Shown here: positions 28,291-59,124 of the stretch, one piece after another
How the letters are laid out: the number at the start of each line of letters is the position of its first letter
Numbering within the stretch: the stretch's first letter is position 1
Source: a virus
Virus record (IMG/VR): IMGVR_UViG_3300042465_004839
Location: 1 to 64,000 of that record
Direction: 5' to 3' (one strand)
Length of the DNA: 64,000 nucleotides
Translations under genes and position numbers: made by a program
The notes under the pieces: model-generated
Database searches by the model: none
Seen by the model: only the letters and a program-made list of their open reading frames with translations
What the model was told of the DNA's origin: nothing

Positions 28291-28746
28291 ATGGAAAAAA
28301 TATTAGAACAATATGATAACAAATATTCAGTTACAACTGAAGGAAAAGTTTTTAGTTTAAAAGGAAACAAAAAAGAATTATTAGGGAAAATATGTAAATC
28401 AGGTTATAGACAAATTCTTATTAACCACAAAGGAATTAGAAAGTATTTTTTAGTTCATAGATTAATATTATCATCTTTTGTTCTTAATCCTTTTAATAAA
28501 AGAACAGTTAATCATAAAGATGGAAATAAATTAAATAATAATGTATCTAATTTAGAATGGAATACAGATTCTGAAAATCAAATTCACGCTATTGAAAAAA
28601 AACTTATTATACATAAAATTGATTACGAAATTGCTGAAAAAATAAGAAATGATGTAGGAAGTCATAGAGAATTAGCAATAAAATACAAATTAGGTAAAAC
28701 ACAAATTGGATATATTAAACAAAATAAAAGATGGAAAATAAAATAA
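28291..28746 (+). CDS. HNH homing endonuclease (start revised to 28291)
   Basis: VHRLI...VNHKDGNKLNNNVSNLEW...EN; TATATTTG at 28280-87. Confidence 0.85.
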   Translation: MEKILEQYDNKYSVTTEGKVFSLKGNKKELLGKICKSGYRQILINHKGIRKYFLVHRLILSSFVLNPFNKRTVNHKDGNKLNNNVSNLEWNTDSENQIHAIEKKLIIHKIDYEIAEKIRNDVGSHRELAIKYKLGKTQIGYIKQNKRWKIK

Positions 28747-30479
28747 ATGTATTGTCTTTGTTCGATGGTTGTTCGTGCGGAAGACAAGCTCTTGAGAGAG
28801 CAGGAATAGAAGTAAATCAGTACTTTGCATCTGAAATTGATAAGTACGCTATTCAAGTTACAATGGCTAACTATCCAGACACAATTCAGTTAGGTAGTGT
28901 AGTAAATGTTGATGGAAAGTCATTACCAAAGATAGAATTGCTACTTGGAGGATCCCCATGCACCAATTTTTCATTTGCAGGTAAACGTAAGGGTATGTCT
29001 ACTAAAGATGAGCAAGAAATATTAACTTTAGAGCATTACTTACAGTTAAAAACTGAAGGATTTGAGTTTGAGGGTCAGTCTTACCTATTTTGGGAGTATA
29101 TGAGGCTACTAAATGAGGTAAAACCTACATACTTTCTTCTTGAAAACGTAGAAATGGGTGAAAAATGGGAAAAAGTACTAAGTAAAGCCATTGGGTACAA
29201 CGGAATTCATATAAATTCTGCATTAGTGTCAGCTCAGAACCGTAAAAGAATCTACTGGACAAATATTGGTATGCAACCTGCTGGATTATTTGGTGATTTA
29301 GAGTCTATTATTCAGCAACCTAAAGATAGGGGTATACTTTTAAAGGATATTTTACAAGATAATCCAAATGCTAAGTACTATATTTCCTCAAAAATGGAGG
29401 AGCATTTAAACTCAAGAGATTCTGTTAAAATAAAAAATGGTGAAGATAAAAGTGGTACAATTACTACAAATGGTGAGGGCAAACAAGGCAATAACTCTAC
29501 ATTTATTTGTCAAGAAGTTGATGAAAAGTATTTTTTAAGTGAAAGTCTAATAAGTAAGCTTCATGTATACAACCAAAGACAGATTGATAACGGCAATGGG
29601 TTTATGGCTAAATTTAGAGATACAAATGTAGTTGAAAAGATGGACTGTATAAAAATTGGTGGTGGGATGAAGGATGACTTAATAGTTCACAACACAATGC
29701 CACGCTCATCAACTACAGGAAAGGGTGGTACTGGTCCGTTAAGTAGAAATGATGGTAAAACATACTGCTTAGACACAAAGAATACCAATGCATTAGAGAT
29801 TGTATGTGGTCAGTTAGGCTACGATAAGCCATTTGAAGAAAACGATAAGGCTCAAGCACTACTACAAAGAGATTACAAGGGTATGAGTAACTACGGAATT
29901 AATGTAGTGGTAAATGCAAATGGGGCTAAAGAACAGGTAGTAGGTAGGAAAGCTCAAGAAGATGGAACTTACAAAAGAGAGTACGAGGTTTCAAATGATG
30001 AAAAGGCTAAAACATTGGAAACAAACAAACAAAAAAACAATGTTGTGATTAGAGAAATAAAACAAATAAGCCAAAACAACAAGTCAAATGGTGGCACTCA
30101 GCCTTACCAACAGGATAGAGTATACGATGTTGATGGCATAAGTCCTGCACTAACAAGTCAACTGCCTAAAGGAAGTTCTATGATTTATTTAAATGAAAAT
30201 CAACAAAAAAAATTTAACCCAAACATAGATTCAGATAAAGCCAATACACTTACACTTGCTATAGGAAGAGCAGGTAGCAGTAGTGAGTATATGGACTCTG
30301 TTTCTAAAATAGCTAATATCACATCAAGAATTAGAAGACTTACCCCAGTAGAGTGTGAAAGATTACAGACAGTTGCAGACAATTATACTGCACACGTTTC
30401 AGATTCTCAGAGGTACAAGATGCTTGGAAATGGTTGGACGATTTCAGTTATAGCCCACATATTTAGTTACATAAAATAA
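28731..30479 (+). CDS. C5 cytosine DNA methyltransferase with expanded variable region
   Basis: LSLFDG (I), GGSPC (IV), ENV (VI), QNRKR (VIII), RRLTPVECERLQ (IX), LGNGW (X). Confidence 0.93.
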   Translation: MENKINVLSLFDGCSCGRQALERAGIEVNQYFASEIDKYAIQVTMANYPDTIQLGSVVNVDGKSLPKIELLLGGSPCTNFSFAGKRKGMSTKDEQEILTLEHYLQLKTEGFEFEGQSYLFWEYMRLLNEVKPTYFLLENVEMGEKWEKVLSKAIGYNGIHINSALVSAQNRKRIYWTNIGMQPAGLFGDLESIIQQPKDRGILLKDILQDNPNAKYYISSKMEEHLNSRDSVKIKNGEDKSGTITTNGEGKQGNNSTFICQEVDEKYFLSESLISKLHVYNQRQIDNGNGFMAKFRDTNVVEKMDCIKIGGGMKDDLIVHNTMPRSSTTGKGGTGPLSRNDGKTYCLDTKNTNALEIVCGQLGYDKPFEENDKAQALLQRDYKGMSNYGINVVVNANGAKEQVVGRKAQEDGTYKREYEVSNDEKAKTLETNKQKNNVVIREIKQISQNNKSNGGTQPYQQDRVYDVDGISPALTSQLPKGSSMIYLNENQQKKFNPNIDSDKANTLTLAIGRAGSSSEYMDSVSKIANITSRIRRLTPVECERLQTVADNYTAHVSDSQRYKMLGNGWTISVIAHIFSYIK

Positions 30480-31369: not shown

Positions 31370-32041
31370 ATGAATAAATACATCACATACTTCAGAGTAA
31401 GTACAAAAGAGCAAGGACAGAGTGGCTTAGGATTAGCTGCCCAAGAACAAATGGTTCTACCCATCACCAACAACGGAATAGTAGTGGCATCATTTACAGA
31501 AGTAGAGTCAGGAAACAAGTCTAACCGTAAAGAGTTAGAAAAGGCTATCAATACCTGTAAACAACATAACGCCATACTCCTCGTAGCAAAACTTGATAGA
31601 CTATCTCGTAACGTACACTTCATTAGTACACTTATGGAAAGTAAAGTACAGTTCAAGTGTGCCGATGCCCCAGAGATGGACTCATTCACCGTACACATAT
31701 TCTCAGCTCTCGCAGAAAGAGAACGTAAAATGATTTCCGACAGAACCAAAGGCGCACTACAAAGCATCAAAAGAATCATTGACAGAGATGGTGAGTACAC
31801 CACTAAAGCAGGTAGAGTAATATCTACTCTCGGTAACGGTCTACTACAAAACAAAGAAACTGCCAAAAAACAAATGGCGTACGTTGCATCCCACAGAGTA
31901 TACCAAAAAAAGTCTAACATAGGTCTTGCCCTCGTACAGTCACTATCACAAAATGGTGTTCCCAAGAAAGATATTAAACAAAAACTTGCCGATAACGGTA
32001 TTAACGTGTCACTACAAACAATATATAAATATGCAAAATAA
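31370..32041 (+). CDS. Serine recombinase (resolvase/invertase family)
   Basis: YFRVSTKEQ (catalytic Ser), ESG, KLDRLSR, AERERKMISDRTK; C-terminal HTH-like; own promoter at 31310-31347. Confidence 0.93.
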   Translation: MNKYITYFRVSTKEQGQSGLGLAAQEQMVLPITNNGIVVASFTEVESGNKSNRKELEKAINTCKQHNAILLVAKLDRLSRNVHFISTLMESKVQFKCADAPEMDSFTVHIFSALAERERKMISDRTKGALQSIKRIIDRDGEYTTKAGRVISTLGNGLLQNKETAKKQMAYVASHRVYQKKSNIGLALVQSLSQNGVPKKDIKQKLADNGINVSLQTIYKYAK

Positions 32042-32222: not shown

Positions 32223-32705
32223 ATGAGCAAACAAACAGCAAAATATATAATACCGCACATGACATTATCCATTGATGGTAGTTTATATAACCACAAAACA
32301 AAAAAATTTAAAAAGTGGACAAAAGATACTAATGGTTATATGAAAACACAAATTTGGGTTGGCGGAAAACCAAAAAACGTACATCAACATAGATTACTTG
32401 CTCAAGAATTTATTAATAACTCAAAAAATAAAAAGCAAGTAAATCATATTAATGGTATTAAGCATGATAATAGAATAGAAAATCTTGAATGGGTTACTCA
32501 ATCTGAAAATGGGTTACATTCATTTGCTAATGGATTGCAAAAAGTTACAAAACCTTGTAAAAAAGTAATTGATACTAGTAATAATAAAATTTATGATAGT
32601 GTAACAGAAGCAGCTAAACATAATGGAATATCAAGAAGTCATTTATCTAATATGCTTACAGGTAAATTTAATAATAAAACAACACTTAAATTATATGGAA
32701 AATAA
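32223..32705 (+). CDS. HNH homing endonuclease with NUMOD1-like tail
   Basis: HRLLA...VNHINGIKHDNRIENLEWVT...YDSVTEAAK. Confidence 0.88.
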   Translation: MSKQTAKYIIPHMTLSIDGSLYNHKTKKFKKWTKDTNGYMKTQIWVGGKPKNVHQHRLLAQEFINNSKNKKQVNHINGIKHDNRIENLEWVTQSENGLHSFANGLQKVTKPCKKVIDTSNNKIYDSVTEAAKHNGISRSHLSNMLTGKFNNKTTLKLYGK

Positions 32706-35015: not shown

Positions 35016-36506
35016 ATGGCAGAAGATGTAACTTTAGGGTTAGGAGGTATATTAGGCGAAAGCACTAATTTAAAACCACTAAATGATAGACCTTTTACAA
35101 AGGCAGCACAGGCAGAATTAACTTTAGGGTTAAAAGCAAAAGCTGATGAGGCTAAATTAGCTGCTGAAAAGGCTAAAATGGAAAAAGAATATGCAAATAT
35201 TATTAAACCTCCTGCAAATGTAGATAAAATTGGAGCAGATAGAATTAAGCAATTAACTATTAATGGATTAATGTCAGGAGCATTTAAAACTCAAATGGGT
35301 GCAATGTTAGGGCAACAAGAAATGAATAGAGAGCAAGAATATAGTGACCAATACCGAGAAATAAAAAAAAGTGCTGATGATATACTTTTAACGCCAGATG
35401 AAAGAACTGCTTTAAAAAATGATGATTATACTGCTATGAAGAAATTTTCAGAAAATCCTAATAGTAATATAGGATGGGATAAAGAATCTGGCAGACCATT
35501 TGTTAAAAAAATATTACCAGATGTTGATTTAAATGCCGAATACAAGAAATACTTGACATTTGGAAATGATGTTAAATTAGATGATACAAAAACAAAAATT
35601 GTTTATGATGTAAATGGACACGCAAGTACTGTAAAAAAAATAGCACCAGAAGTTGTTGACATGAAAATTGACGCACTTTTCAGTAATCCAAATTTTGCTC
35701 CGAACTATTTACATAAAAATAGAGAAAAAGTAGCTGTTGAATTACCTGCTGAACTTGCAAAAGTAGATGCAAGTAACCCTGAAGCAGTTGCCAAAGCAAC
35801 AAGCCTTGCAATTAAATCCGCAGTTAGAAAAGAATTAGACCCTATGTTTTATAAACAGGTAGATATTAAGGATAAACCTAAAAAAAGTGGTGGGTTAAAT
35901 TTTAATTTTGGTAGTGGAGGTACAATTGGAAGTAATGGTATTGAAATGAAACCTGACCCTAATGATAGTGGACTTATAAATATTAAAAAAACAGTTCAGC
36001 CGGGAAAAGACCCTGAAGTATTAAGTGCAATATTACTTGATAAAAATGGACAACCACATAATTTTGGTAAGATAGAAGCATACAGAAAAATAGGAAAAGA
36101 TAATTATAGGGTAATAGGATCAACTACAGAAAGTGGTACTGCTATTGCTAAGTCTATTGCAAATATTAGTGGAGAACAATTATCTAAATCAGTTGGAATG
36201 AGTAAAGATGCATTAGAACAATTTCCAGTTTCTTTTGAATATGATAAAGAAGTAGAGGCAAGAAATAAAAAGTTTGAAATATACTTTAAAAAACATCCAA
36301 CAACAAAAGGTAAACCTACTACTCAAGAATCATTATATGGAGATATAGATGTAACAAGATATATAGCATATAGCCCAACTACAGCAGCAAAAGCAACTAC
36401 AACAGCAAAGCCAACAGGTAAAACAATGACAAGTGCTGAATACAGAAAATTAACACCAACAGAAAGATCCGCATTTAAAACAAGCGGAGGTAAAGTAGAA
36501 GGATAA
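35016..36506 (+). CDS. Internal virion/ejection protein (medium)
   Basis: 496 aa, Lys/Ala-rich, between the small and giant ejection genes. Confidence 0.55.
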   Translation: MAEDVTLGLGGILGESTNLKPLNDRPFTKAAQAELTLGLKAKADEAKLAAEKAKMEKEYANIIKPPANVDKIGADRIKQLTINGLMSGAFKTQMGAMLGQQEMNREQEYSDQYREIKKSADDILLTPDERTALKNDDYTAMKKFSENPNSNIGWDKESGRPFVKKILPDVDLNAEYKKYLTFGNDVKLDDTKTKIVYDVNGHASTVKKIAPEVVDMKIDALFSNPNFAPNYLHKNREKVAVELPAELAKVDASNPEAVAKATSLAIKSAVRKELDPMFYKQVDIKDKPKKSGGLNFNFGSGGTIGSNGIEMKPDPNDSGLINIKKTVQPGKDPEVLSAILLDKNGQPHNFGKIEAYRKIGKDNYRVIGSTTESGTAIAKSIANISGEQLSKSVGMSKDALEQFPVSFEYDKEVEARNKKFEIYFKKHPTTKGKPTTQESLYGDIDVTRYIAYSPTTAAKATTTAKPTGKTMTSAEYRKLTPTERSAFKTSGGKVEG

Positions 36507-36510
36507 AAAT

Positions 36511-39500
36511 ATGCCAGATAAAATAAAAGAAGCATTTACTGCTATAAACGACAAAGAATTATTTTTAGACGAACAAGACTTTAGGGATAATGTAATGAAA
36601 GACCCAAAAGGAACATTTGAAGCATTAAATAATTATGGTAAAACTAAAGGATTTTTTTTAGATTATGGAGATTTTGAAAGTGCTTTAGATTTAAAAAAAA
36701 AAGAGCCTACAGCACCATCTATACCAAATTTTTCAACAAGTTTGGGAGGGGATATGCAACCTTTGCCAAGTGGTGCAAAAAATATTTCCCAATCACCATT
36801 ACAATCGAATATAAAAACAGAGTTTCCGACATACATTGACCCTACAAAACCTTTAAAAACAAAAGAGGTTATAGATGTAAATGCGGAGAAGAAACCTTTT
36901 GATAGTGAAGTAATAAGAAAAGAAAGAGAGGTAAGATTAGGTACACATAGAGAAAAGATAATGTCTTCTATTGTTAAAGAACCTGACTTATATACTAAAA
37001 AAGCATCTAAGTCACATTATGGAACTATAGCAGTACCAGAAATGCCTAACATTGATAACATATCAAAGGCAATAGATTACTATGCAACAAAATTAGTTAA
37101 ACAAGGTGAATACCTTAGCCCACTTGATAAACAATATTTAGTAAATAGTGTTGCTCAACAAGTAAAACAAAGGAAAAATATTGCAGATGCAGCAGCAAAT
37201 GCAAGTCTTAGAGCAATAAACAGAAAAGAATTACCTGAATACGCTTACACAGGCGTAACTAATGCTAAAGGAGAAGTGTTAGTAAAAGGACTTTTTCAAG
37301 AAGCAAACGAAAAAATAATCAACGAACAAAATAAGGAAGTTGACAATTACAAAATAAATTCTGAAAATTTAACAAAAACAGTAGCAACAGAAGTTGCCCC
37401 AGAAGTAAATGCTTTAAAACTTGATGTTAAAGCCAAAGCAGAAATATTAAATCAAGAGGTAGAAACTGCTTTTAATAAATCATTTAACGAAAAAGACAAA
37501 GCTATGTATGACCAATACAATCAATTGGTTCAAAGTGGGCAAATGACTCCTGATGTAGCAAATAATGCTTTAAAAATAAAAAGAGAAGAATTACAAAAGC
37601 AGACACAAGCAGAGATAAGTGCTGCCTATGCTCCTAAGTTTGATGCATTAAATAAAGAATCTAACTTAAAATCAAAAGACATACAAAGTACATATAACAG
37701 AAACTACTTAGCAAAAGCAAACTTACTAAAAGAAACTACTAACAAAAAACTTCAAGAAATAGCCCAAAAAAATATGGTAAATATGCCTAAAGGGTATATG
37801 GAAAGATGGGCAAAGGATTTTCAAGAAAGTTTAGCTGAAATAGAAAAGAAAAACGTAAATCAAGCTTATTTAGATGCTAAAAGAATGCCAGCAGAGGCAA
37901 GATTAGCAAAAGCAGTTTCTTTTGGGTTTGGTAATGTATTAGGCTCAATAGGAGGGGCTATGTCATTTGCAGGATTAGATGCAAGTGCAGTAAACGATGT
38001 AGTTATTAAAACTACAATGCAAAATGAACTTACAAGTAGTGCGTATTACCGAATTAAAGATGAAGAAGCAAAAGCAAATGGAACTCCACACGCTAATTTT
38101 GTAGAGAAACTTTCTGATCCTTCTTGGTGGTATGATAATATGGGAAGTACCGCACCATTTATGTTAGTAACTATGCCAGTAGGTATAGCATCAGGTTATG
38201 GGGCAGGCTCTATAGCAAAATTATTAGGAGCGAGTAAAAGAGCAACAGCTATTGCAAGTGCAGTAGGTGGTGGTGCAGTAAGTTGGTATGGAGAAAACAC
38301 ATTAGAGGCAGGAAGTGCATTTAACGATGCTATTAATCAAGGGTACTCAGAAAACGATGCATCAGAAATAGCAGCAAGAACATTTAGAAATAACATAATA
38401 ACATTACCTCTAAGTGTATTCCAGCTAATGCCAGTATTTAGTAAATCATTTAAATTTACTAAAGCATTACCGTTAGAAATAATTTCTGGAGGTGTTGAAG
38501 AAGTGTTTCAAGGTTGGTCACAAGCTGAAGCAAATGCAGCAGCAAATGGGTATGATGTAAGTTTATTTGAGTATGCTAAAACCCCACAAGCATTAGAGGA
38601 GGGAACTATTGGAGGTGCGATGCAAGCAGGTATGGCAATGTTTGCATTAAATGAAACTCCAAATATTGACAAACAAATATCTGCATTAATGAGTTCTATA
38701 AGTGTAGGTGGCGAACAGTATGCAAGAGCAGTATTGGATGTAATGAACAAGAATCAAGCCATTACAGATGCTGAATTTAAAGAAGCTAACCTACAAATAG
38801 ACTACATCTTAAATGGTATTGAAAGTGTTCAAAACTTTAATGTAGACGACAATTTAAAGGCAGGATTAGTAGGTAAATTTGCTAAAATAGGCAGAGCAAA
38901 GGCATTAATTACAGATGATGAGAATGACTTGGCAAGTCAAGCTGCAAAAGAAATGATTGCAGAGCAAGAGAAGGATATAAAAGAAATTTTAAAAGGTAAT
39001 ACACCTTTATATTTAGTATTCCAAAAAGGGAATCCAATACCAACTTTAGCAAGTGAAGAGCAGTTTAACACAATACTAAAAGACCCAAAACTAAGAGAGG
39101 AATTTACATTACAAGCAATAAATGATGATGCATTGCAAAGTAAAATAGATGAAACATATAAAACAGGAGTAGTAACAGAAGAAGAAACAATAAATGCAGA
39201 ACAAGAAATTATACCAGCAACTGAAACCCCTGCTGCACCACCTAGCGGTGTTAGTGGTGAGGTACAGGCATCTGGTGATGTAGAAGCAAATATAGCCAAC
39301 AGAAAAAGAAAAGATTTATTCCCTGACAAATCAAGATTTGCTAATGACGTAGGTCAAAGTGGAGAAAACTCTCAAATATCATCATACAAAGAAGTAAATG
39401 GAATTGGATTATCAGAATATTCTAATCCTAAAAATGGTTTAGTAGATGTTATAATGACAGGAACTTCTGATAATGATTATGTTGGATACATAAGAATATA

Positions 39501-42500
39501 CGAAAACGGCAAGCCAACAAATAGATGGACATCTAAAATGTCAAACAAATCTGGCAATAAAGGCAACTTTAAAACCATGATAACAGAAGCTCAAAAATTA
39601 CTTCCAGAGGGTCACGAATATACTGAAACTACAAATATATCTTTAGATGGTTTAAGGGTTTATGCTAACAGTTTAAGCAGAGATTATGAAATAGCTACTG
39701 ATGAAGATGGAAAACCTATAACAAATAATGTTGAATTAAATAATGCAACATTAGCAGCACTACAAGGCGCAAAAAATCAACAAGAAACTGAAGATTTGTT
39801 TGACACTAAACGAGGAATTACAAGAGATGAATTTAATCAAATAAAAGAGCAAGTAAATAAATTATTGCCAAATACAAGATTATTATTTGACACGGCAAAT
39901 GGAATTGTAACAATACAATTACCTGTACTAAAATCAACTAAAAAACAATTAACAACTAACGAACAACAAAAAGCATCTAAAAAAGTTGCTGAAGTAACTC
40001 CTAAAGAAGGCGACAGCGTTATTATAAAATCACGTTTTGGTCGTGATGAAAAGTTGGTATTTAATAAAGGAGAGTGGAGAGTACAATTTGGTAAAGATGA
40101 ATTTAGTGATATTGGTAAGGCTGCTCAACAAGAAGCTCAAGATGCATTTAATAAAAAGAATGAACCTGTTGCTGAGGTTAAGGAACAAGCACCTGTAGTT
40201 AAGGAACAAGCTCCTAATAGGGCAGAAGGAAATGTTAAAGTAAAATCTTTTAAACAAGGAGATGGCGGAACAAAAGGAGTTTTTGAAGGAGAAGATGGTA
40301 AACTTTATAAATCTATTGAGCCACAAGAATCAGTTCAAGACAAAGAAGGAAACTTTAAGCGTCAAACCATTAAAGATACACTAACAGACGAGCATAAAAT
40401 ATTGTCTGAACTTCAAGATAACCCTCATGTACCTAAAGTAGGTAAAATTGTAGATACTACGGAAGGCAAAGCTTTTGAAATAGAAAAATTAGATGAAGTT
40501 GATACTTTTACTAAAGATGAGTATAGGGAAATTCAAAAAATACTAAATGACTTAAACGACAAAGGTTATCATGTAGGAGATAGAGTTACTGTTATGAAAC
40601 GCCCAAAAACAGGCGAACTTGTTATTATTGATTTTTCTGCTGGGTACAAAGGAAGTAGAATGTCAAGAGATGCCGATGAATATATGGGTGACGTAGCAAA
40701 GAAACTAAGTAAATCTGATGCTATAAATATTAAATTAGAAGACTTGTCAGAAATAAATAGAGAACAAGCAGATGCTTTTTTTGACAAAGAATCAACTACT
40801 GAATACTACTTAACACAAAGACCTCCAAGCATAGGAACACACCCAACAGAAGGATTATTATCGGTTAACGAAGCAGAATATAGAAACAGAAAAAATGTTT
40901 ATATACTTAAATATGATAGAAAACTTACACCAAACGAAATAGCTAACTTTGAACTAACTCCTAAAGTAACAAATAAAGAATTTTTAGGTCAAAAAATATT
41001 AGGTGTATATGGTAAAGTTCCATTTTATGTAACTAAAATAGATTACAAAAATGGAACTGTAAAAATGGCTGCGGAGGTAGTTGGAAAAGAAGTAGAAAAA
41101 GAAATTTCTTTTAGGGAGTTTAGTAAAAATATAGACGAAGGTAAATATAAAGTAGAAACACCCAAAGAAGAAAAACCTGTTAAGGAACAAAAAGAGCCTG
41201 TTAAGGAACAAACTGAAAAAGAAAAGGCTAAAGAAAAGGCTAAGGAAGAATTAAGAGCAAGAGCAGCAAAAGCTAAAGCTGAGGCTATTAGTGCTGCACA
41301 AAAAGTTCAACAAGCATTAGAGGCAACAGGAATAACTGTTGAAGTAGTTGATAGTGAGCAAGAGTTCCAAGATAAATTAGATGCTGAGGGTGTTAATAGA
41401 GCAAGTTCAGCAGGTAAAAGCGGTGTATTTATATCTAAGTCAGGTAAAATATTTATTAACGGTAGCAAGGTTGATGCTAACTGGGGTAGTGTAGATGTAT
41501 GGCACGAAGGAACTCACCCTATTATTAACATAATAAGGAACACAAACCCTAAACTATACAATTCAATAATAGATGGACTAAATAAATTAGTTACAAGTAA
41601 TCCAGAGATTGCTGATGTTTTAAAGTGGGCGCAAAAAAATTATAAAGGCAAAAACACTTTAGAGGATGAAACTATAACTGAAACCATAGCAAGAATAGCA
41701 AATGGCAATATAGATATATCAAAGATACCTACATCATTAAGAGATAAGATAATAGATTTCATTAATGAGATTGCTAAGTCATTAGGAATAAAACCTATGT
41801 TCAAAAGTTCTAATGTTGCAACATTTAAAAAGATAGCAGGCGAAATATCTGCTGCACTTAAAGAAGGTAAAGATATTAGTAGTATAGTAGGTGCAGAAAA
41901 TGTTAAGAATTATGAGTCAAAAATAACAATAGAAGACTCAGAGTCTTATGTTAAAAAAGCAAATGAATCAGAAACATCAGAAGGTATTAATAATGAAAAT
42001 ATATCTATTAGCGATATAAGCGGTAACTCTAGAAAAGGCATTCAGTTTTCAAAAGGCAAGGAAAGAACCGAAGAGAAAGCTAAAGAAACAGTTGAAGATA
42101 AAATCAAGGCAGAAACAATAAAAGCAGTAAAAAAATCTATATTAGACTACAAAAGTTTAAAAGGTAAAATATCAAGAACACTATTTTATGATAACACAAG
42201 GGTTGGTTCTTTAGAAATAAAAAACAGAATTACAGGATACACTCCACCTGTTATGGGTAAGGGTGGCTTCTTTTATTCTTATATGCCTAGTTCTTTAAAA
42301 AATAAAGCAGTATTAGCATTTACAAGTATTAACCAAGCCATACAAACCTTAAAGAGGCAAATGCTATACCCTGATGGGTTACAGGCTATTGCTGCTCAAA
42401 ATTTTCAAACTGCACATCTTGGGAATAAGTCTACCTTAGAAGCATTGTTTGGGAAAAGTGGTTCTGAAAATTTAGGCATATTTCAAGACTCTGTAAAAGA

Positions 42501-45500
42501 TGTAAAAAACAATCCGAATGGGGAAGCTGAGTTGCTAGAAACATTGAAAAAAGCAACAATAGATATTGCCAATCAAAAAGTGCAGTCAGGAGTTAATGAA
42601 GGCAAGCCAACGGCATCAGCAGAAGAGATAAAAAAAATAATAGAAAGAAATGGAGGAAATTTAGATGGTATAAAATCACTTGATGATTATAGGGATAAAG
42701 TTTTGACATTTACAGGAGGTGACTCATTTGGAGCAAGAAATATATTATTTACTGAAGTACTTCAAGAAAAACCAACAAAAATAACTAAATCCACAAGGGA
42801 ATCTCACCAAATAATACATTATAAGTATGGCATTCCTACCTTATCTGAAATAGCCGAAGGTAATAATCAAAGTGAACTAAATAATGCCGAAACAGGAGAT
42901 GTTGTTAAATTTGTAAAGCCATACACAGACCCTGTTGTATACACTACTGACAAAAAAATATATAAACAATACTCTGAAAATCCAACGCCTGAAATGGTTG
43001 AGAATGGCATTAAAATAAAGTTATTGCCTAAAGATGCTGCACACGAATCTTATGCTTTTGTTTTAAAAGGTGAAAACGTAGGTTTGTTAGACAACTACAT
43101 TTCAGCCACTCAGTTATATGAAAAAAATGAAAAAATAGCCAACACCCCTAAAAAGCAAAGTTTTTATAAAGTGGGAAGGATGCCTGCAAATGCAGAGGCT
43201 GGAGTGTATCCAGAAAACCCCATTGCTCAGGGAAAGGCTCAATACTCACAAGGGAACAGAGATGCTGTTGCAAATAAGAATACAGAAAAAAATAATATTA
43301 TAATAAAAGATAATAACATAGAGGGCAAACTTCTTAACAATCAAGAGTCACAAAAATTACAAAAAGAAATTGAATCTAAATATAATGACTCAGGAATACA
43401 AAAATTTGGACAAGAAAATGAAGATATACGTCAGAATTTATATAACTATGATAACCCATTAGCAGAAAAAGATGTAAATGGGATTAATATAAGAATTGCA
43501 GAGGGATTATTAGAGGGAGATAAATATTCTGGAAACAGGAAAAAAACTTATTTGTTATATGCAGATGGTAAGATAGCAGGTAAATTCTATTCTGTAGCAG
43601 ATGCAAAAAAAGTTGTAAGTTTTATTGAGCAAAACTTAATAAAACCAAAATCATTAGCACCAAGTAATCCTCAATACTCTCAAGGTAACAGAGATGCTGT
43701 TGCTAATGAAAACTTAATAAATGGATTCTATTCACCATTAGAGAAAACAATTAACGATTCTAAGCAAGATAAGATGCCTGCTAAACAATGGATAGAAAAG
43801 TTTGCTAAAGGTGAAGAAGCTAAATGGACAGGACTAACTGATTGGTTAAGCTCTCAAACAGGCTCGGTATCTAAAGCAGATATTCAGCAATACTTAAAGG
43901 ACAATAGAATAGAAATTGAGGAAAAAGTTAAAGGAAGTTCTGATTGGATTAAAGAAGGTAAATCATATTTTTCACAAAATAAAAAATATGAAATAAGAGA
44001 TTTAGGTGATAATGAATATACAGTAATTAAAGATGGCAGATATAATTTAGGTAGTCGTGATGGTCTTGAAAGGGCTAAAGAACTTGCATTTGAAGATGGA
44101 TATTCAAATGAAGAAGATATAAATAATGACACTAACTTTGGCAACCGACCTGATTTACAATTAGAAGGAGAGAAAGAAAATTACAAAGAGATATTGGTGA
44201 CGTTGCCAAATAAAGAAGCAATAAAAGAATCTGAAATTGAAGAAAAAAGACGAAAAGCTGGAATTATGGATAATTTTAACTTTGAAACAATGGGTTATAA
44301 TGATACTCGAAATGTTCCAAAGTTTGTATCATCTCACTTTGATGAACCCAACATACTCGTTCATTTAAGGATGAATACTCGTATAGATTCAAATGGTAAT
44401 AAAGTATTGTTAATTGAAGAAGCACAAAGCGATTGGGGTCAAACAGGGAAAAAGAAAGGGTTTAAACCAACTTTTGAAATTAGAAACGAAAAAGGTATGT
44501 TCAATGTTTATTCTTCTGTAAACAATATGAAAGAACCTGCATTTTCTTTTGATACAAAGGAAGATGCAAATAAAATGCTTGAAACTTTAAATAAAACAAA
44601 TGAAAGTAAAGTTCCAACTGCACCATTTGTAATGGACACAAATGCATGGGCTAAACTTGGTTTAAAGGTAGCATTAAAAGAAGCAGTTGCACAAGGAGTT
44701 GATAAGATTGCTTGGACTACTGGAGAGCAACAAAATGATAGGTATGATTTAAGCAAACAAGTTGATGAAATCAATTACAGTAAAAATTCAGATGGAACTT
44801 ATGATGTATCCGCCAACAAAAATGACAACCAAGTATTTGACAAGTCTTACATAAAAGAAAATGAATTAGAGGGAATAGTAGGCAAAGAAGTTGCTCAAAG
44901 AATAATAAACAATGAGGGTAAAGAACCGGTAAGGGGTAGTGGTAATTATAAAAAATCATTAAGTGGTGATGGATTAAAAGTTGGCGGTAAAGGAATGAAA
45001 GGCTTTTACGGATCACCAACAGAAGGTAAATTAGGTATAGTAGGTGAGGTTGCTAAGAGTTTGTTTAAGCAAGAACCGAAAACGGTAAGTATAGAAGGAA
45101 TATTAAGTTTTAATGTTTACGATAATAAAGATGGGAATTTGCAAGGTAATTTTGCCGACTTTAATTCTGCAAAAGAATTTGCAAAAAAAATAGATGGTAG
45201 TGTTCAAAAAACAAATATTTCAACTCAAAATTCAATAGACATAACACCAGAGTTAAAAGCACAAGTTGAAGAAGGTCTGCCTCAATTCTCGCAAGGGAGT
45301 AGAGATATACAATCTCTTGTAGATATAATTACAGAAACTCAAGAAAAAGGACAATTAGATGATAATGAAATAGCAGAAACTTTAGAAGCTTCTTACTCTA
45401 AAGAAGAAATTCAAGAAGCATTTGATTATATCAATAACCCACCTATAAATGAGCCTACTGCAACAGAAACTGTAGAACCATCTAAAGTTGAATCTGAAAA

Positions 45501-45750
45501 AGTAGTTAATTCATTAAACACAGCAGAAGTAGAGGCGGTAGCAAAAGCTTTAGCAAAGGAAGAAAAGAAAGGATTTGATAAAACCAATAATACCGAAAGG
45601 AATAATGCAAGGAATAAAGAAGCAGAAAAGGAATTAAAGGATTTGGAAAATGCTGCTACCGTACTTGCTATAACTCAAAATATAAATGAGATTAGAGCAA
45701 AATTACTCGAAAATGGTAACATAAAAACTATTGACTGTAAATGGGGATAA
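36511..45750 (+). CDS. Giant polyvalent ejection protein
   Basis: Coiled coil + Gly/Ala hydrophobic region, followed by GNAT-like, kinase-like, DarA_C-like, zincin HEGTH and EEAQSDW domains. Confidence 0.75.
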   Translation: MPDKIKEAFTAINDKELFLDEQDFRDNVMKDPKGTFEALNNYGKTKGFFLDYGDFESALDLKKKEPTAPSIPNFSTSLGGDMQPLPSGAKNISQSPLQSNIKTEFPTYIDPTKPLKTKEVIDVNAEKKPFDSEVIRKEREVRLGTHREKIMSSIVKEPDLYTKKASKSHYGTIAVPEMPNIDNISKAIDYYATKLVKQGEYLSPLDKQYLVNSVAQQVKQRKNIADAAANASLRAINRKELPEYAYTGVTNAKGEVLVKGLFQEANEKIINEQNKEVDNYKINSENLTKTVATEVAPEVNALKLDVKAKAEILNQEVETAFNKSFNEKDKAMYDQYNQLVQSGQMTPDVANNALKIKREELQKQTQAEISAAYAPKFDALNKESNLKSKDIQSTYNRNYLAKANLLKETTNKKLQEIAQKNMVNMPKGYMERWAKDFQESLAEIEKKNVNQAYLDAKRMPAEARLAKAVSFGFGNVLGSIGGAMSFAGLDASAVNDVVIKTTMQNELTSSAYYRIKDEEAKANGTPHANFVEKLSDPSWWYDNMGSTAPFMLVTMPVGIASGYGAGSIAKLLGASKRATAIASAVGGGAVSWYGENTLEAGSAFNDAINQGYSENDASEIAARTFRNNIITLPLSVFQLMPVFSKSFKFTKALPLEIISGGVEEVFQGWSQAEANAAANGYDVSLFEYAKTPQALEEGTIGGAMQAGMAMFALNETPNIDKQISALMSSISVGGEQYARAVLDVMNKNQAITDAEFKEANLQIDYILNGIESVQNFNVDDNLKAGLVGKFAKIGRAKALITDDENDLASQAAKEMIAEQEKDIKEILKGNTPLYLVFQKGNPIPTLASEEQFNTILKDPKLREEFTLQAINDDALQSKIDETYKTGVVTEEETINAEQEIIPATETPAAPPSGVSGEVQASGDVEANIANRKRKDLFPDKSRFANDVGQSGENSQISSYKEVNGIGLSEYSNPKNGLVDVIMTGTSDNDYVGYIRIYENGKPTNRWTSKMSNKSGNKGNFKTMITEAQKLLPEGHEYTETTNISLDGLRVYANSLSRDYEIATDEDGKPITNNVELNNATLAALQGAKNQQETEDLFDTKRGITRDEFNQIKEQVNKLLPNTRLLFDTANGIVTIQLPVLKSTKKQLTTNEQQKASKKVAEVTPKEGDSVIIKSRFGRDEKLVFNKGEWRVQFGKDEFSDIGKAAQQEAQDAFNKKNEPVAEVKEQAPVVKEQAPNRAEGNVKVKSFKQGDGGTKGVFEGEDGKLYKSIEPQESVQDKEGNFKRQTIKDTLTDEHKILSELQDNPHVPKVGKIVDTTEGKAFEIEKLDEVDTFTKDEYREIQKILNDLNDKGYHVGDRVTVMKRPKTGELVIIDFSAGYKGSRMSRDADEYMGDVAKKLSKSDAINIKLEDLSEINREQADAFFDKESTTEYYLTQRPPSIGTHPTEGLLSVNEAEYRNRKNVYILKYDRKLTPNEIANFELTPKVTNKEFLGQKILGVYGKVPFYVTKIDYKNGTVKMAAEVVGKEVEKEISFREFSKNIDEGKYKVETPKEEKPVKEQKEPVKEQTEKEKAKEKAKEELRARAAKAKAEAISAAQKVQQALEATGITVEVVDSEQEFQDKLDAEGVNRASSAGKSGVFISKSGKIFINGSKVDANWGSVDVWHEGTHPIINIIRNTNPKLYNSIIDGLNKLVTSNPEIADVLKWAQKNYKGKNTLEDETITETIARIANGNIDISKIPTSLRDKIIDFINEIAKSLGIKPMFKSSNVATFKKIAGEISAALKEGKDISSIVGAENVKNYESKITIEDSESYVKKANESETSEGINNENISISDISGNSRKGIQFSKGKERTEEKAKETVEDKIKAETIKAVKKSILDYKSLKGKISRTLFYDNTRVGSLEIKNRITGYTPPVMGKGGFFYSYMPSSLKNKAVLAFTSINQAIQTLKRQMLYPDGLQAIAAQNFQTAHLGNKSTLEALFGKSGSENLGIFQDSVKDVKNNPNGEAELLETLKKATIDIANQKVQSGVNEGKPTASAEEIKKIIERNGGNLDGIKSLDDYRDKVLTFTGGDSFGARNILFTEVLQEKPTKITKSTRESHQIIHYKYGIPTLSEIAEGNNQSELNNAETGDVVKFVKPYTDPVVYTTDKKIYKQYSENPTPEMVENGIKIKLLPKDAAHESYAFVLKGENVGLLDNYISATQLYEKNEKIANTPKKQSFYKVGRMPANAEAGVYPENPIAQGKAQYSQGNRDAVANKNTEKNNIIIKDNNIEGKLLNNQESQKLQKEIESKYNDSGIQKFGQENEDIRQNLYNYDNPLAEKDVNGINIRIAEGLLEGDKYSGNRKKTYLLYADGKIAGKFYSVADAKKVVSFIEQNLIKPKSLAPSNPQYSQGNRDAVANENLINGFYSPLEKTINDSKQDKMPAKQWIEKFAKGEEAKWTGLTDWLSSQTGSVSKADIQQYLKDNRIEIEEKVKGSSDWIKEGKSYFSQNKKYEIRDLGDNEYTVIKDGRYNLGSRDGLERAKELAFEDGYSNEEDINNDTNFGNRPDLQLEGEKENYKEILVTLPNKEAIKESEIEEKRRKAGIMDNFNFETMGYNDTRNVPKFVSSHFDEPNILVHLRMNTRIDSNGNKVLLIEEAQSDWGQTGKKKGFKPTFEIRNEKGMFNVYSSVNNMKEPAFSFDTKEDANKMLETLNKTNESKVPTAPFVMDTNAWAKLGLKVALKEAVAQGVDKIAWTTGEQQNDRYDLSKQVDEINYSKNSDGTYDVSANKNDNQVFDKSYIKENELEGIVGKEVAQRIINNEGKEPVRGSGNYKKSLSGDGLKVGGKGMKGFYGSPTEGKLGIVGEVAKSLFKQEPKTVSIEGILSFNVYDNKDGNLQGNFADFNSAKEFAKKIDGSVQKTNISTQNSIDITPELKAQVEEGLPQFSQGSRDIQSLVDIITETQEKGQLDDNEIAETLEASYSKEEIQEAFDYINNPPINEPTATETVEPSKVESEKVVNSLNTAEVEAVAKALAKEEKKGFDKTNNTERNNARNKEAEKELKDLENAATVLAITQNINEIRAKLLENGNIKTIDCKWG
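43238..43707 (+). repeat. 38-bp in-frame direct repeat pair (QYSQGNRDAVAN)
   Basis: 43238-43275 vs 43670-43707, 35/38 identical; third partial copy at 45281-45306. Confidence 0.9.
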
Positions 45751-46309: not shown

Positions 46310-46356
46310 GCTCACCATGCCTCTCAACGATGCACACTTTGGTGGGCTTTTTTTTT
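46310..46356 (+). terminator. Intrinsic terminator after ferritin
   Basis: GCTCACCA/TGGTGGGC stem with a large structured loop, T9. Confidence 0.75.
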
Positions 46357-54939: not shown

Positions 54940-57084
54940 TTATTGTATATTATTTTGATTTTCTTGTTCAAGCATTTGTTGCATTAATTTACTGTCAAGT
55001 TCTGCATCTTTATTTTCCATACTTGCAGCAGCACCTGTAGCAGCTATATTTTGTTGTGCTTGTGCCTGCATTGCTGAATTAGCAGCAGCAGCATCTTGTT
55101 GTTGTTTAACAGCAGCCTGTTCAGCTTGCATACGAAGTAGTGCCATATTATCAAGTATTTCCTCTACTGCATCAAGAGTTTCTGCTCTCATTATCTTAAT
55201 AAACTCACGTTTAGCGTCAGGATTAACACCTGCCTCTTGAACAGTAATTTGAGATAATGTAGCCTTAACTTGTTCTGTTAACTGACTATCAAAATCAAAT
55301 CTAATTTCAAAGTCATCATTAAGCATTTCTTGTACTGAATCCATTTTAAGTAATGTAGCAGCAGTATCACCTATTTGTAAACTGAATGCTCCCTCATCTT
55401 GGTCAGCAAGTACTAACCTTGTCTTGTCAACCCCTAAAGATATTACATCTTGAAAGAAGGTAGTTAATCCACCGTATAGCCATTGTGTACCTGTTTCGGC
55501 ACTAAGTATATTATTCTGTAATTGAGCCTCACCAACGTAAGTAGAAGAACCTAATCTTGACTGTACAGGCATATTAAGTACATCAGCAAGTACATTATCC
55601 CAATACTGTAGTTGTCCTAAGTATAATTGAACATTAGGGTCAACAGTCATATCAAGAATTTCAATCATCTTGTTAGTCTTTTCTTGTCCTGCCTCTACCT
55701 CTGTTCTGTTACCTACTAGTATACCTTGCTGTTTCATCATAGCAAGCATATCGGGAGTTTTCATAAAGTCAGGCAACTGAGATGTATCTACGAAAGGAAT
55801 CTTACCCATTGCCCTTGCAAGCATACCTTGCATAGTAGTAGTTAAGGCATCTTTCATATCTTGAATCTTGTGTACAAGCATTACAACGCCCATATTACTA
55901 CCAAGTAACGTGAAAGGAGTAAAGGCACAAAAATCTAATCTACGTCTTGACTTATCTCTCTTATCAGAAACACTATTAGCTTTAATACCACAGTTTCTTA
56001 AATATTTATTTCCAATTAATTGTCCTTGTCTAATACACTCTACAGGTACACCATCAATATAAGTAAGAGAACGCCACTCAACATCTGCTACCCATACTTT
56101 AGGCACAGTAGTCATGTTAGAGTACCAATTAATAAAATTCCATCCTTGAACGTAAGGAGCTTGTGCATTACCAGTATTCATAGCAATTGCCTCTAAGTCC
56201 TTTACTTCTTCTGATGTAAAATCAAATCTTGCAACAATATCAGCAACTGAGTAAGGTTTAAACTCACCTGCTAAAGCATCATTAATGTGATGGTCTTCGT
56301 TACGAGTCATATCAATAATAGCGTATTCAGGTTCTACAACCCTCATATAAACTCTACCTTTACTTTCGTAAATTCTAATTAAAGAACGACCTCCGATAAA
56401 ACAATACTGAGCAGCTTTCAAGAATAAATCAAAGTAACGATTACGATACAAGAAGTCTTTACCTAAGTTTCTATAAGCAAACTCCATTTCATCCATAAAA
56501 GTTTTAAAGTACTTTTGGATACTCATCTCATCGTTAATGTTTAAACCTTGAGGTATTTCTAACTCAATATTACCTAACTCTTTTTCGTATAATAAAAACT
56601 CTTTAGCATCTACAACTGACTTTAATACATTTAATTTTAAAGCTTTCCTACTTAATATTCCTTCGCTAATACCATTAGCTTGAAGTATTTTAGGTAGTGG
56701 CTTAAATTGTTGGCGGCACTTACCATCAAAGTAACGGAACATAGCAGATATTTCAAGTCCACGCCACATTGGTATTTGAGTGGCAGCATTTGTCGCATCC
56801 TTAGAAGCCCATTCGTATTCAGTATTGTACTGCAATCCGTAAATGTAACGAGCAGCAAATACATATTGGTCTATAAATCTTGTGTTTATTCTATCGTAAG
56901 GGTCACCAATAGCACCTCTCATTTGAGTAGAAACAATTGGCTGATTGTAAGAAGTACCTACAATCCATCTAATATTTTTAGCATAATCAGAGCCTTCCCA
57001 CTCTCTTCCATCGTTAGATTGATTGGGCTGTATTGAAGGAGAAGCCCCTCCTGATATAACTGAATTTATTAGTTTCATTTTCAT
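54940..57084 (-). CDS. Portal protein
   Basis: 714 aa after TerL; IQDMKD, AMGKIPFVDTSQLP, SRLG, Q/A-rich C-terminal barrel. Confidence 0.8.
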   Translation of the reverse strand: MKMKLINSVISGGASPSIQPNQSNDGREWEGSDYAKNIRWIVGTSYNQPIVSTQMRGAIGDPYDRINTRFIDQYVFAARYIYGLQYNTEYEWASKDATNAATQIPMWRGLEISAMFRYFDGKCRQQFKPLPKILQANGISEGILSRKALKLNVLKSVVDAKEFLLYEKELGNIELEIPQGLNINDEMSIQKYFKTFMDEMEFAYRNLGKDFLYRNRYFDLFLKAAQYCFIGGRSLIRIYESKGRVYMRVVEPEYAIIDMTRNEDHHINDALAGEFKPYSVADIVARFDFTSEEVKDLEAIAMNTGNAQAPYVQGWNFINWYSNMTTVPKVWVADVEWRSLTYIDGVPVECIRQGQLIGNKYLRNCGIKANSVSDKRDKSRRRLDFCAFTPFTLLGSNMGVVMLVHKIQDMKDALTTTMQGMLARAMGKIPFVDTSQLPDFMKTPDMLAMMKQQGILVGNRTEVEAGQEKTNKMIEILDMTVDPNVQLYLGQLQYWDNVLADVLNMPVQSRLGSSTYVGEAQLQNNILSAETGTQWLYGGLTTFFQDVISLGVDKTRLVLADQDEGAFSLQIGDTAATLLKMDSVQEMLNDDFEIRFDFDSQLTEQVKATLSQITVQEAGVNPDAKREFIKIMRAETLDAVEEILDNMALLRMQAEQAAVKQQQDAAAANSAMQAQAQQNIAATGAAASMENKDAELDSKLMQQMLEQENQNNIQ

Positions 57085-57123: not shown

Positions 57124-59124
57124 TTATCCTTCCTTTAGTTCCCATTTAAACTCACCATTCACATATTTGCTTGTCCACATCTGTGATTTTACTTTTTCTT
57201 TAGCAGAACTTTGAGTTTCTGGATCAAAGTTTCCACAAGCCATACAGCCTACACCATAAGCATCGGACAAATCGGAGTTCTCACTACCATATATTAATAA
57301 ATCTTGTACAATTCGTAAAGAATTTATTTGATGTCCATACAATCGTAAATATTTATTCATAACAGAGGTCCGGTAATCTTTGTTGTTTGCATCTAAATAT
57401 ATTCCGTACGCATTACCACTCTTCTCAAGTAACTTATCTGTATTATGTTTAGTTAACTGTCTTATTAGTAACTTCTGTTGACCTTCTGCCTCAAATAAAT
57501 CGGTAATAGTACTTCCTGCACTTGCATTCCTCTCAGGGTAAGTTCTTAGCCCACCAAACTTATTGTAGTACATACATAGCCATAAAGCAGCCTTTTCTAC
57601 CATAGTTCTTTTATCTGGTCTAATACATATATTAGCCACATCAACATATTGGTTATCTCCTGTTATTCTATGAACTACTAATGCATACTTAGATTTAGTT
57701 TTACCTTTTTCAGAACCATCAGCATTTTTATTTGTACTGCTAATATCCGTACTTGTAGCATCTAAACCTACACGATACAAATGATGTTCTTGTGGTTGTT
57801 CAAATACTTCACACGAAAATTCATTAGCCTCCTCACCTTTAGCCATAGGGTTTAAAGATATTTCTTTAGTAGTTGGGTTCTTATGAATTTTATACATAGG
57901 TGAGGGTGTACCCCTTAATTGTTTTTCTCTTAACCTTAAAGTTTCAATCACGTCAACTTCTAATCCTCCACTTCTATTTATATCAAAAATATCTTCTACT
58001 CTTTCAGGGAACTGTCTTTTAAGTAAAGCTCTTTTAGAGTCAGTAAGACCTTCGCACATATTAGCAAAGTAAGCTTTTGCTTCTTCAACTTTTGGGTTGC
58101 CATACTCATCAATAAACGAAGGGTCTGATAGGTAGTAAGGTATAAGCATACGATACAAACCACTTTGAGTTCTACCATTAGCATTTCTTTTATTAATATC
58201 ACTAGCATACCAAAGTTCTTTACTAAAAGGAACTGCTTTAGCCTTACCATTCTCAACAGTAGATACCATCCATAGTTTACCTATAATATCTTTTGTCCCT
58301 TCTGTACACTGGGCAATTAAAGTTTGAAACAATTGCTCCATATCCATAAGTTCTTGACTCGCAAACTCATCTAAAAAATATTCGGTTACTCTTTCCCCTT
58401 GAATAGAGGTTATTTTACTTGGCAATGCTTCAATACGAGTATAGTTGCCATCTTTAAAAGTTACCTTATCCGAACTTCTCTTAATAGTTTGATTCTGACG
58501 AAAGAATATACTATCATTTTTGTATGTATGTTGATAAATATAAGGTAATGAATTGTTCAAAGAAAGGAATGCATTTAATGTTCTTTGGAATAAAGCTTGA
58601 GCCTTATCATCTTTTGTAGCTTGCAAGAAATAACTTGCTTTAGGTTTCAATAAACTATCAAAAAGCATACGAGATGGTATCATTTCTGACTTACCCCAAC
58701 GCTTTTGTGTATAGGCTACTAAACCATAACAGTTTGAATCCTTTTTACAAATGTCTTGTAAGTAAGCTAACTGAGCATGACTCCATCTATATTTAGGATA
58801 AACACCACCTCCTAAGTCCCAGTGTTTTAAAAATCCATAGTGTGCGCCTGTAAGATAAACTAACTCACCATTGTTATAAAAATGAAATCCATTCTCTAAT
58901 CTAAATAGTTCCTTTAGCTGATAGTTTTGTTTTTCCTCAACAGTCATGTGACTAAAGTTAGGGTCTTTAGGTCTTTCCCACTTTTGTTGCTTCTTTGGTA
59001 AGTCTTTATTATATACGGGTTCAAAAGGCTCTGGGCATTCGTAGAACATATTTTTAGGTTCTACATCACTTTCACCTTTTTCTCCTTGCGTTCCAAATAA
59101 TTCTACACTATGCTTTTTCGCCAT
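57124..59124 (-). CDS. terL: Terminase large subunit
   Basis: YNNGELVYLTGAHY, KRWGKS (Walker A), YFLDEF (Walker B), MVST, C-terminal GLDA/ERN/DLSDA nuclease. Confidence 0.88.
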   Translation of the reverse strand: MAKKHSVELFGTQGEKGESDVEPKNMFYECPEPFEPVYNKDLPKKQQKWERPKDPNFSHMTVEEKQNYQLKELFRLENGFHFYNNGELVYLTGAHYGFLKHWDLGGGVYPKYRWSHAQLAYLQDICKKDSNCYGLVAYTQKRWGKSEMIPSRMLFDSLLKPKASYFLQATKDDKAQALFQRTLNAFLSLNNSLPYIYQHTYKNDSIFFRQNQTIKRSSDKVTFKDGNYTRIEALPSKITSIQGERVTEYFLDEFASQELMDMEQLFQTLIAQCTEGTKDIIGKLWMVSTVENGKAKAVPFSKELWYASDINKRNANGRTQSGLYRMLIPYYLSDPSFIDEYGNPKVEEAKAYFANMCEGLTDSKRALLKRQFPERVEDIFDINRSGGLEVDVIETLRLREKQLRGTPSPMYKIHKNPTTKEISLNPMAKGEEANEFSCEVFEQPQEHHLYRVGLDATSTDISSTNKNADGSEKGKTKSKYALVVHRITGDNQYVDVANICIRPDKRTMVEKAALWLCMYYNKFGGLRTYPERNASAGSTITDLFEAEGQQKLLIRQLTKHNTDKLLEKSGNAYGIYLDANNKDYRTSVMNKYLRLYGHQINSLRIVQDLLIYGSENSDLSDAYGVGCMACGNFDPETQSSAKEKVKSQMWTSKYVNGEFKWELKEG

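Follow-up and report, generated by a model that had tools for sequence, protein, structure and literature searches.

In Thermus thermophilus, the dnaX gene yields tau and gamma from one continuous open reading frame (ORF) by transcriptional slippage on a run of nine A's (A9), and bacterial RNA polymerase is described as slipping on runs of ~9 A or T (PMC5009743; partial text). For E. coli RNA polymerase, no slippage was detectable below eight A's (PMC6260861; partial text). The tssM1 gene of Citrobacter rodentium and Yersinia carries an A11 tract from which mRNAs with 10–15 A's are made, and both length variants are needed (PMC4256274; partial text). Here, we describe a candidate site of this kind in a giant phage gene, located on a 64,000-nucleotide stretch of DNA (hereafter the window) that corresponds to positions 1 to 64,000 of the 73,169-base virus record IMGVR_UViG_3300042465_004839 from IMG/VR (GC content of the window, 31.8%). 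The gene is an ORF of 3079 amino acids (aa) on the + strand (36511..45750, taken as the 0 frame), and the candidate site is a run of ten A's (A10) at 36693-36702, near its start. We consider it probable that this run supports programmed slippage, by RNA polymerase rather than by the ribosome, such that the gene would give rise to both the giant protein and a short protein composed of the same N-terminal domain and a basic, aromatic tail.

The A10 run and its off frames in the window

The run falls within codons 60-65 of the giant ORF, GAT TTA AAA AAA AAA GAG, and is part of the slippery tract T TTA AAA AAA AAA (36690..36702, + strand), in which the heptamers T_TTA_AAA and A_AAA_AAA both stand in 0-frame register (X_XXY_YYZ). 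Re-reading of the sequence confirmed the position, flanking codons, and both heptamers as given in a first-pass annotation of this DNA, which a model had made from the sequence. The A10 is the sole run of at least nine A's in the window, where 12 A runs reach a length of at least eight, and the remaining three KKK sites in the window are each broken by AAG.

The giant protein's N-terminal domain (N-domain; 36511..36702, + strand) comprises ~60 aa, with two ~25-aa repeats (pattern F..I...G.F.DE.DFR) and four predicted helices, and ends in LKKK. An AlphaFold model of the N-domain has four helices with a predicted local distance difference test score (pLDDT) of 80, which falls at residues 64-68; thus, the A10 run sits exactly at the junction between domain and linker. 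This fits the 64-aa N-terminal domain that the first-pass annotation had placed immediately before the run. A profile search with the N-domain identified 99 cluster representatives among 1.84 billion proteins, nearly always with the domain at residue 1 and many of them in carrier proteins of 2000-3700 aa; in three representatives (P0054, P0091, and P0108) it is preceded by an N-terminal hydrophobic segment. The window phage's genome has a single copy. The N-domain is an unannotated family: nothing above threshold was found in Pfam or PHROG for the N-domain, for the -1 tail, or for the short family members described below, and a Foldseek search of the N-domain model against the PDB gave no match at E <= 0.001.

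In the -1 frame, a TGA lies six codons 5' of the run (36675..36677, + strand) and there is no ATG, GTG, or TTG within the -1 ORF, so that this ORF can be entered only at the run; no + strand ORF of at least 30 aa is listed in the stretch. Past the run, the -1 frame reads KKK RAYSTIYTKFFNKFGRGYATFAKWCKKYFPITITIEYKNRVSDIH and then reaches TGA at 36837-36839, which amounts to KKK plus 45 codons (36693..36839, + strand) and a predicted trans-frame product of ~109 aa. The +1 frame, accessible if one A were lost or two were gained, stays open over 37 codons (36695..36814, + strand) up to TAA at 36812-36814. Both open lengths had been reported earlier and were reproduced here. Counted from stop to stop, the -1 stretch of 53 codons exceeds every other open -1 stretch of the giant gene (the runner-up has 35). 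Among the 10,778 codon positions of 36 long ORFs, 0.12% have at least 45 open -1 codons, and the probability of at least 45 open -1 codons is 0.005-0.006 when amino acids are fixed and codons are redrawn. The -1 tail includes a block that is conserved among relatives, TGG TGC AAA AAA TAT TTC CCA ATC ACC ATT ACA ATC (WCKKYFPITITI; 36771..36806, + strand), within which lies the rare 0-frame Ser codon TCC. The first-pass annotation had also remarked on atypical codons in the 0-frame linker, and these are indeed present and rare by the codon usage of the window: TTG is 12.4% of Leu codons, GGG is 8.7% of Gly, TCG and TCC are 2.8 and 2.7% of Ser, and CCG is 4.3% of Pro. Among them, GGG-GAT and TCG-AAT spare stops in the -1 frame, and TTG-GGA spares a stop in the +1 frame.

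Conservation of the run and of the -1 frame among relatives

Relatives with DNA sequence comprise 14 run-bearing lineages (the window together with L001, L003, L005/L006, L007, L008, L010, L011, L013, L016/L017, L018, L019, L020, L021, and L026-L029) and one further lineage that is run-less (L025). The lineages have N-domain identities of 26-91% (median 48%), locus GC contents of 32-47%, and loci of 2.9-7.5 kb. A search for relatives with DENEF-type and LGLGK-type N-termini yielded no new DNA lineage.

The run is A10 in 10 of the lineages, A9 in three, and A11 in one, and is in frame in all 14; in each locus it is the sole homopolymer of at least nine. The A11 run belongs to L016 and L017, where it is likewise in frame, from which it follows that run length has changed during evolution. 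The codons of the run depart strongly from the usage of the genes that carry it, with AAG at 1 of 39 Lys codons where the usage of the individual genes predicts 14.5. The single AAG is the last codon of the L010 run, which its G terminates; hence, in none of the 14 lineages is the run interrupted by AAG, in line with what had been anticipated for homologues. For fixed amino acids, the run codons have a joint probability of 10^-15.7, under the assumption of independent lineages, which holds only in part. In L013, TTA precedes the run although TTA represents 9% of Leu codons there, while other conserved Leu and Lys columns of the N-domain are synonymously variable. The A10 of L010 occupies a different codon phase (GAA AAA AAA AAG), and variants with KKN and EKKN retain the A's but not the lysines. 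At the protein level, KKK, KKN, KKR, or KKS is found at the junction in ~84 of the 95 family representatives that span it, and the residue after KKK has a G-starting codon in 46 of 64 KKK cases. Collectively, the sequence comparisons indicate that the run is kept as nucleotides, not as lysines. The first linker residues differ in every lineage, and a 9-nucleotide (three-codon) indel separates the window from L001 directly after the run (36703-36711). A T8 run inside the N-domain (GGA TTT TTT TTA, 36652-36659) was also considered as a conserved feature, and was dropped because it is not kept in relatives.

Stop codons are depleted in both off frames after the run. For the first 20 codons after the run in the 14 lineages, with the 0-frame protein kept and codons redrawn from each gene's own usage, there are 3 stops in the -1 frame versus 20.1 expected (a count this low arose in 0 of 500 resamplings), and the +1 frame has 2 versus 8.4 expected (1 of 500 resamplings). 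No depletion is seen in 77 control windows from the same genes that are rich in S, P, T, G, Q, and A (-1 stops, 90 vs. 96.0; +1 stops, 92 vs. 103.1), and versions of the test with 8 and 13 lineages and with other window sizes gave concordant stop depletion. The phage has no general avoidance of -1 stops, in that the share of T-ending codons is 0.37 before codons that start with AA, AG, or GA and 0.36 elsewhere. The -1 frame is closed 2-8 codons 5' of the run in all 16 loci, and past the run it is open for 14-65 codons in all loci of the 14 lineages, so that the open -1 frame first noted in the window extends to its homologues. The predicted products are 78-129 aa for the -1 frame and 74-135 aa for the +1 frame.

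The -1 tails contain 21% K and R, 22% F, Y, and W, and 4% D and E, which bears out the basic-aromatic character attributed to the tail of the window phage; the 0-frame linker encoded by the same nucleotides is 59% S, P, T, G, Q, and A. The tails share the motif W-x(3-8)-[FC]-P-[IY]-[TSK]-I-T-I, which takes the form FPITITI in the window, L019, and L021, FPISITI in L008, and FPIKVTI in L010. A comparison of ungapped nucleotide segments over the 45 codons past the run in the 14 lineages recovered 13 conserved same-phase segments, versus a mean of 0.26 and a maximum of 2 with codons redrawn (0 of 150 simulations reached 13). The 49 mismatches within these tail segments are distributed as 8/33/8 over 0-frame codon positions 1/2/3, and the numbers that are synonymous are 26 for the -1, 7 for the 0, and 2 for the +1 frame. 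The corresponding distributions are 330/220/647 for the N-domain (220 of 1197 mismatches at position 2) and 35/25/55 for a downstream control. Within TTC CC, seven lineages retain TCC, which is rare among Ser codons (2.7%). The concentration of mismatches on -1 wobble positions, combined with the excess of nucleotide conservation, is the pattern of a translated overlapping frame, and the suppressed synonymous variation that the first-pass annotation had called for is thereby found in the tails of distant lineages. Frame toggling with compensating indels was considered as a source of the open off frames and rejected, with 0 cross-phase conserved segments versus 13-15 same-phase segments.

At the same junction, the run-less lineage L025 (2672-2692 of an IMG/VR contig; the same record as L030) reads CTG GGC TTG GGA AAG CAA. 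The heptamer G_GGA_AAG stands here in X_XXY_YYZ register (P = 0.018 given the codon usage of L025); it is one of 5 in-frame heptamers of this type among 897 codons, and 33 open -1 codons follow it. We take G_GGA_AAG to be the slip sequence of lambda G/GT. Coming from one lineage, the heptamer is only suggestive, but a selected -1 shift at the junction would predict it. Four relatives represented by protein sequence (P0045, P0050, P0053, and P0090) have LGLGK at the junction and may share G_GGA_AAG.

Proposed mechanism and rival explanations

In the model that we favor, the A10 run would be a selected slip site between the four-helix N-domain and the disordered linker. Most expression events would read straight through to give the 3079-aa protein, and a fraction would shift to the -1 frame and terminate at the TGA at 36837-36839. 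The likelier cause would be the addition of one A by RNA polymerase, and the less likely a ribosomal -1 slip on A_AAA_AAA. In the resulting protein of ~109 aa, the N-domain and the lysines would be followed by a basic, aromatic tail of 45 residues that includes the W..FPITITI motif, and the gain of two A's or loss of one would produce a second short form of ~100 aa via the +1 frame. Because it would share the N-domain, the short form might bind the partner of the giant protein, and thereby dose or escort it in assembly. We infer slippage itself, the slipping machine, and the ratio of products from sequence comparisons.

Polymerase slippage is favored by a run of 9-11 (never 7-8) where a heptamer would suffice for the ribosome, by independence of codon phase, and by the lack of a shared structure; of the two modes of slippage put forward earlier, these features accord with the transcriptional one rather than with a ribosomal shift of the dnaX type. 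Over 100 nucleotides from the run in nine loci, no shared RNA structure was detected (z from -2.26 to +0.40), a result that leaves room for weak or unusual stimulators, and no GGAGG-like element is visible 5' of the run in the aligned sequences. One extra A corresponds to a -1 shift and two extra or one fewer to a +1 shift, which fits the strong -1 and weaker +1 stop depletion. A ribosomal -1 slip on A_AAA_AAA is possible, and L025 suggests that ribosomal slippage can substitute. A more elaborate scheme, which we regard as unlikely, is that RNA polymerase slippage gives a fixed mix of the giant protein with functional short -1 and +1 isoforms, while replication slippage (A9, A10, and A11 alleles, which would appear in public assemblies as short forms) shifts the ratio heritably, such that a phage population would hedge how much it makes of a giant anti-defence protein that may be injected.

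A number of observations weigh against the production of two proteins by slippage. A lone A10 is within chance for the window (synonymous shuffles of 53 ORFs give a mean of 1.26 A runs of at least 10), and the lineages that share the run are only partly independent. The two-product interpretation of the first-pass annotation is upheld by the run, the open -1 frame, and the constraint on the tail, but not by tail length, which is not conserved (14-65 codons), nor by L001, in which the motif is degraded to CSISINI; the closest pair, the window and L001, has an ordinary 0-frame pattern, with mismatches of 7/7/12 by codon position. L007 (14 codons) and L011 have no FPITITI-like motif. Some of the block statistics were anchored on the -1 motif and are hence biased, and the conserved block is a low-complexity (ATYACN)n sequence, for which some segments repeat the same region at offset diagonals. 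The +1 stop depletion, which had not been predicted, is unexplained by a -1 product alone. The λ-type heptamer comes from one lineage, and the ~11 short out-of-frame forms in public assemblies leave variation of the run at the DNA level possible. A search of the phage genome for a T7-like RNA polymerase (PF00940), as a candidate for transcribing the giant gene, gave no match, and neither did the control of the search.

Those short forms are part of the case for a reading in which the run is a contingency tract in the DNA, whose slippage during replication switches the giant protein ON and OFF (phase variation), with the short forms as OFF alleles; we consider this unlikely. At the protein level, ~11 of the 99 family representatives have a length of 66-107 aa and an off-frame-like tail that begins right after the K-run; their contigs derive from ENA, JGI, Logan, and NCBI. 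P0046 (80 aa; found on two contigs, of which one is 37 kb long) matches the L018 -1 tail at 100% identity, P0036 matches the L017 +1 tail at 80% over 25 aa, and the best-matching frame is +1 for eight of the short forms and -1 for three. The evolved run length of L016/L017 (A11, in frame) is also consistent with tract variation. However, being known as proteins alone, the short forms could be homopolymer miscalls, which are deletion-biased, and they cluster separately by length, which inflates their share of the representatives. Furthermore, the run is in frame in 14 of 14 run-bearing DNA lineages, of the contigs from four DNA samples that were compared with the window, those of two other lake samples (X2 and X3) span the run of the window phage and are identical (X4 has no coverage over 36679-36754 and X5 none over 36560-36811, and so they bear on neither reading), and ON/OFF switching predicts neither the wobble-type conservation of the -1 motif nor stop-free off frames. 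Phase variation and slippage could coexist, with slippage rescuing OFF alleles in the manner of tssM1. It has been reported that iterated AAA codons cut protein output and cause ribosome sliding and termination in other frames (PMC4363877; partial text), and the run, kept at the nucleotide level, could accordingly act only as an attenuator, holding back or derailing a share of the ribosomes or polymerases so that a 9.2-kb gene that is costly to express yields less product, with the shifted peptides as waste. Lowered output is known for iterated AAA (PMC4363877; partial text), but in E. coli it was A11 that gave a robust truncated product by sliding and A9 or A10 gave little (PMC4363877; partial text), and the usual length here is A10. 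Nor would waste peptides keep stop-free off frames or a motif that is synonymous in the -1 frame, given that early off-frame stops would be cheaper; we find attenuation alone very unlikely.

Two further readings dispense with slippage. Ordinary protein-level conservation would require a functional KKK (e.g., a junction or protease site) in the preferred AAA codon, with off frames left open by linker composition. KKK is almost universal at the protein level, every locus uses AAA as its favored Lys codon (59-89%), chance alone should place roughly one A10 in the window, and the run-less L025 nonetheless has its 33 open -1 codons. Set against this are the near absence of AAG (1 of 39 vs. 14.5 expected), the TTA kept in L013 at 9% usage, the phase-shifted A10 of L010, and the KKN and EKKN variants that keep the run rather than the lysines; in addition, linkers of similar composition are without stop depletion, and redrawing codons abolishes the nucleotide conservation of the tail. 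This reading is strongly disfavored by the sequence data, and we judge it extremely unlikely. We hold the same view of a non-coding RNA or DNA element (structure, binding site, or internal promoter), as opposed to a translated -1 frame, as the reason for the conserved nucleotides after the run, an explanation that is exceedingly improbable even though nucleotide conservation exceeds the requirement of the 0-frame protein and L001 folds somewhat better than shuffles (z = -2.26). Against it, the variation follows a three-base period that falls on -1 wobble positions, stops are missing from the -1 frame while TAY, TGG, and TGY are abundant, no common fold appears in the nine loci, and the block does not keep a fixed distance from the run.

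Genomic context and comparison with known systems

The only recognized domain in the giant protein is DarA_C (Pfam; aa 1431-1484, E = 7e-9). Beyond DarA_C, the protein has no match in PHROGs, Pfam, PDB sequences, or the ESM Atlas, and its first 1000 aa had no match by tblastn against 50,697 phage records. The label "ejection gene" that was given to the ORF is a guess, backed by the DarA_C match; a capsid-borne polyvalent-type protein is plausible as its product (cf. PMC5512222; partial text). Genes for terminase (57124-59124) and portal (54940-57084) are both on the strand opposite to the giant gene, and a tail protein gene is located at 3-1817. The gene 5' of the giant gene encodes a 496-aa protein (35016-36506) that is 50% identical to its counterpart in L001 (1521-2993), whereas the adjoining N-domain is 93% identical between the window and L001; at the tblastn level, the upstream gene was found only in L001, with no match in the other lineages. 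Divergence or absence of this neighbor in relatives that keep the N-domain indicates that the giant gene occurs in mosaic contexts.

Elsewhere in the window, a serine-recombinase or DNA-invertase-like gene (31370-32041), two HNH endonucleases (32223-32705 and 59499-59993), and a GIY-YIG-type homing endonuclease (3453-4013) were noted, as well as a 582-aa DNA methyltransferase (28731-30479). A T9 run (46348-46356) between a ferritin-like gene (stop at 46285) and a 1373-aa ORF (start at 46404) resembles the T tract of an intrinsic terminator. A G10 run (2775-2784; GCT TCG GGG GGG GGG ATA) lies within an ORF of 442 aa (2092-3420) just 3' of the tail protein gene, and its codons are rare in a genome of 32% GC (GGG, 8.7% of Gly; TCG, 2.8% of Ser). 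This run might be another tract prone to hypermutation or slippage, in what may be a tail or receptor-binding gene; no homologue of the 442-aa protein turned up in three related phage records.

If slippage at the A10 run is real, uncultured freshwater phages of a widespread group possess a 9.2-kb gene with two or more protein products, of which annotation pipelines see one, and a well-conserved site joins the small number of phage recoding sites known from genes other than those for tail chaperones and capsids. Such a site would also provide a handle on the dosing or loading of giant virion-associated proteins, and "hypothetical proteins" of 66-107 aa that start with the N-domain would be shifted forms of the giant gene, not separate genes. 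The occurrence of A9, A10, A11, and GGGAAAG at one junction constitutes a natural series for comparing slippage by polymerase and ribosome.

In the literature searched, which included partial texts of PMC5512222 and PMC10885494 and had subscription journals and supplements outside its scope, there is no account of such a slip site in phage ejection, cargo, or polyvalent proteins; the words "frameshift" and "slippage" have 0 occurrences in the text of PMC5512222 at hand. The giant gene is like the genes for polyvalent or DarA-type capsid-borne proteins (Iyer et al., 2017, PMC5512222; partial text) in its size, in DarA_C, and in the terminase-portal module of its genome. Polyvalent proteins carry several effector domains, whereas DarA_C alone is recognized in the giant ORF, for which capsid packaging and ejection is a candidate role.

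In-register X_XXY_YYZ heptamers are shared with lambda gpG/gpGT and E. coli dnaX, as would be the common N-terminus that is predicted here. As at a -1 frameshift site, a conserved -1 ORF begins at the slip site; unlike in both of these systems, no conserved stimulatory structure or Shine-Dalgarno-like element was found for the giant gene, and its run is 9-11 long and independent of codon phase. The frameshift product of the giant gene would be the short one, as in E. coli dnaX and unlike lambda GT.

The tssM1 gene has a poly-A tract, as does the giant gene, for which the two length variants and variable number of A's of tssM1 are predicted (PMC4256274; partial text). In tssM1, the genomic sequence is out of frame, and it is slippage that yields the long form, whereas in the window and across the 14 lineages the genome is in frame; short out-of-frame family forms such as P0046 would resemble the interrupted genomic frame of tssM1 (PMC4256274; partial text). 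As in Thermus dnaX, the long product is encoded by one continuous ORF with a homopolymer of at least nine A's in its coding region, and a shorter product that shares the N-terminus is predicted (PMC5009743; partial text). Thermus dnaX has nearby stops in both other frames (PMC5009743; partial text), whereas in the giant gene family both stay free of stops for 14-72 codons, and a motif of the -1 tail is conserved. The site also differs from Thermus dnaX in belonging to a giant phage protein family, in lying at codon 61 of 3079, and in being known here from sequence alone. On the whole, the feature appears to resemble the Thermus dnaX and tssM1 sites in its working, and we regard it as a predicted member of that class.

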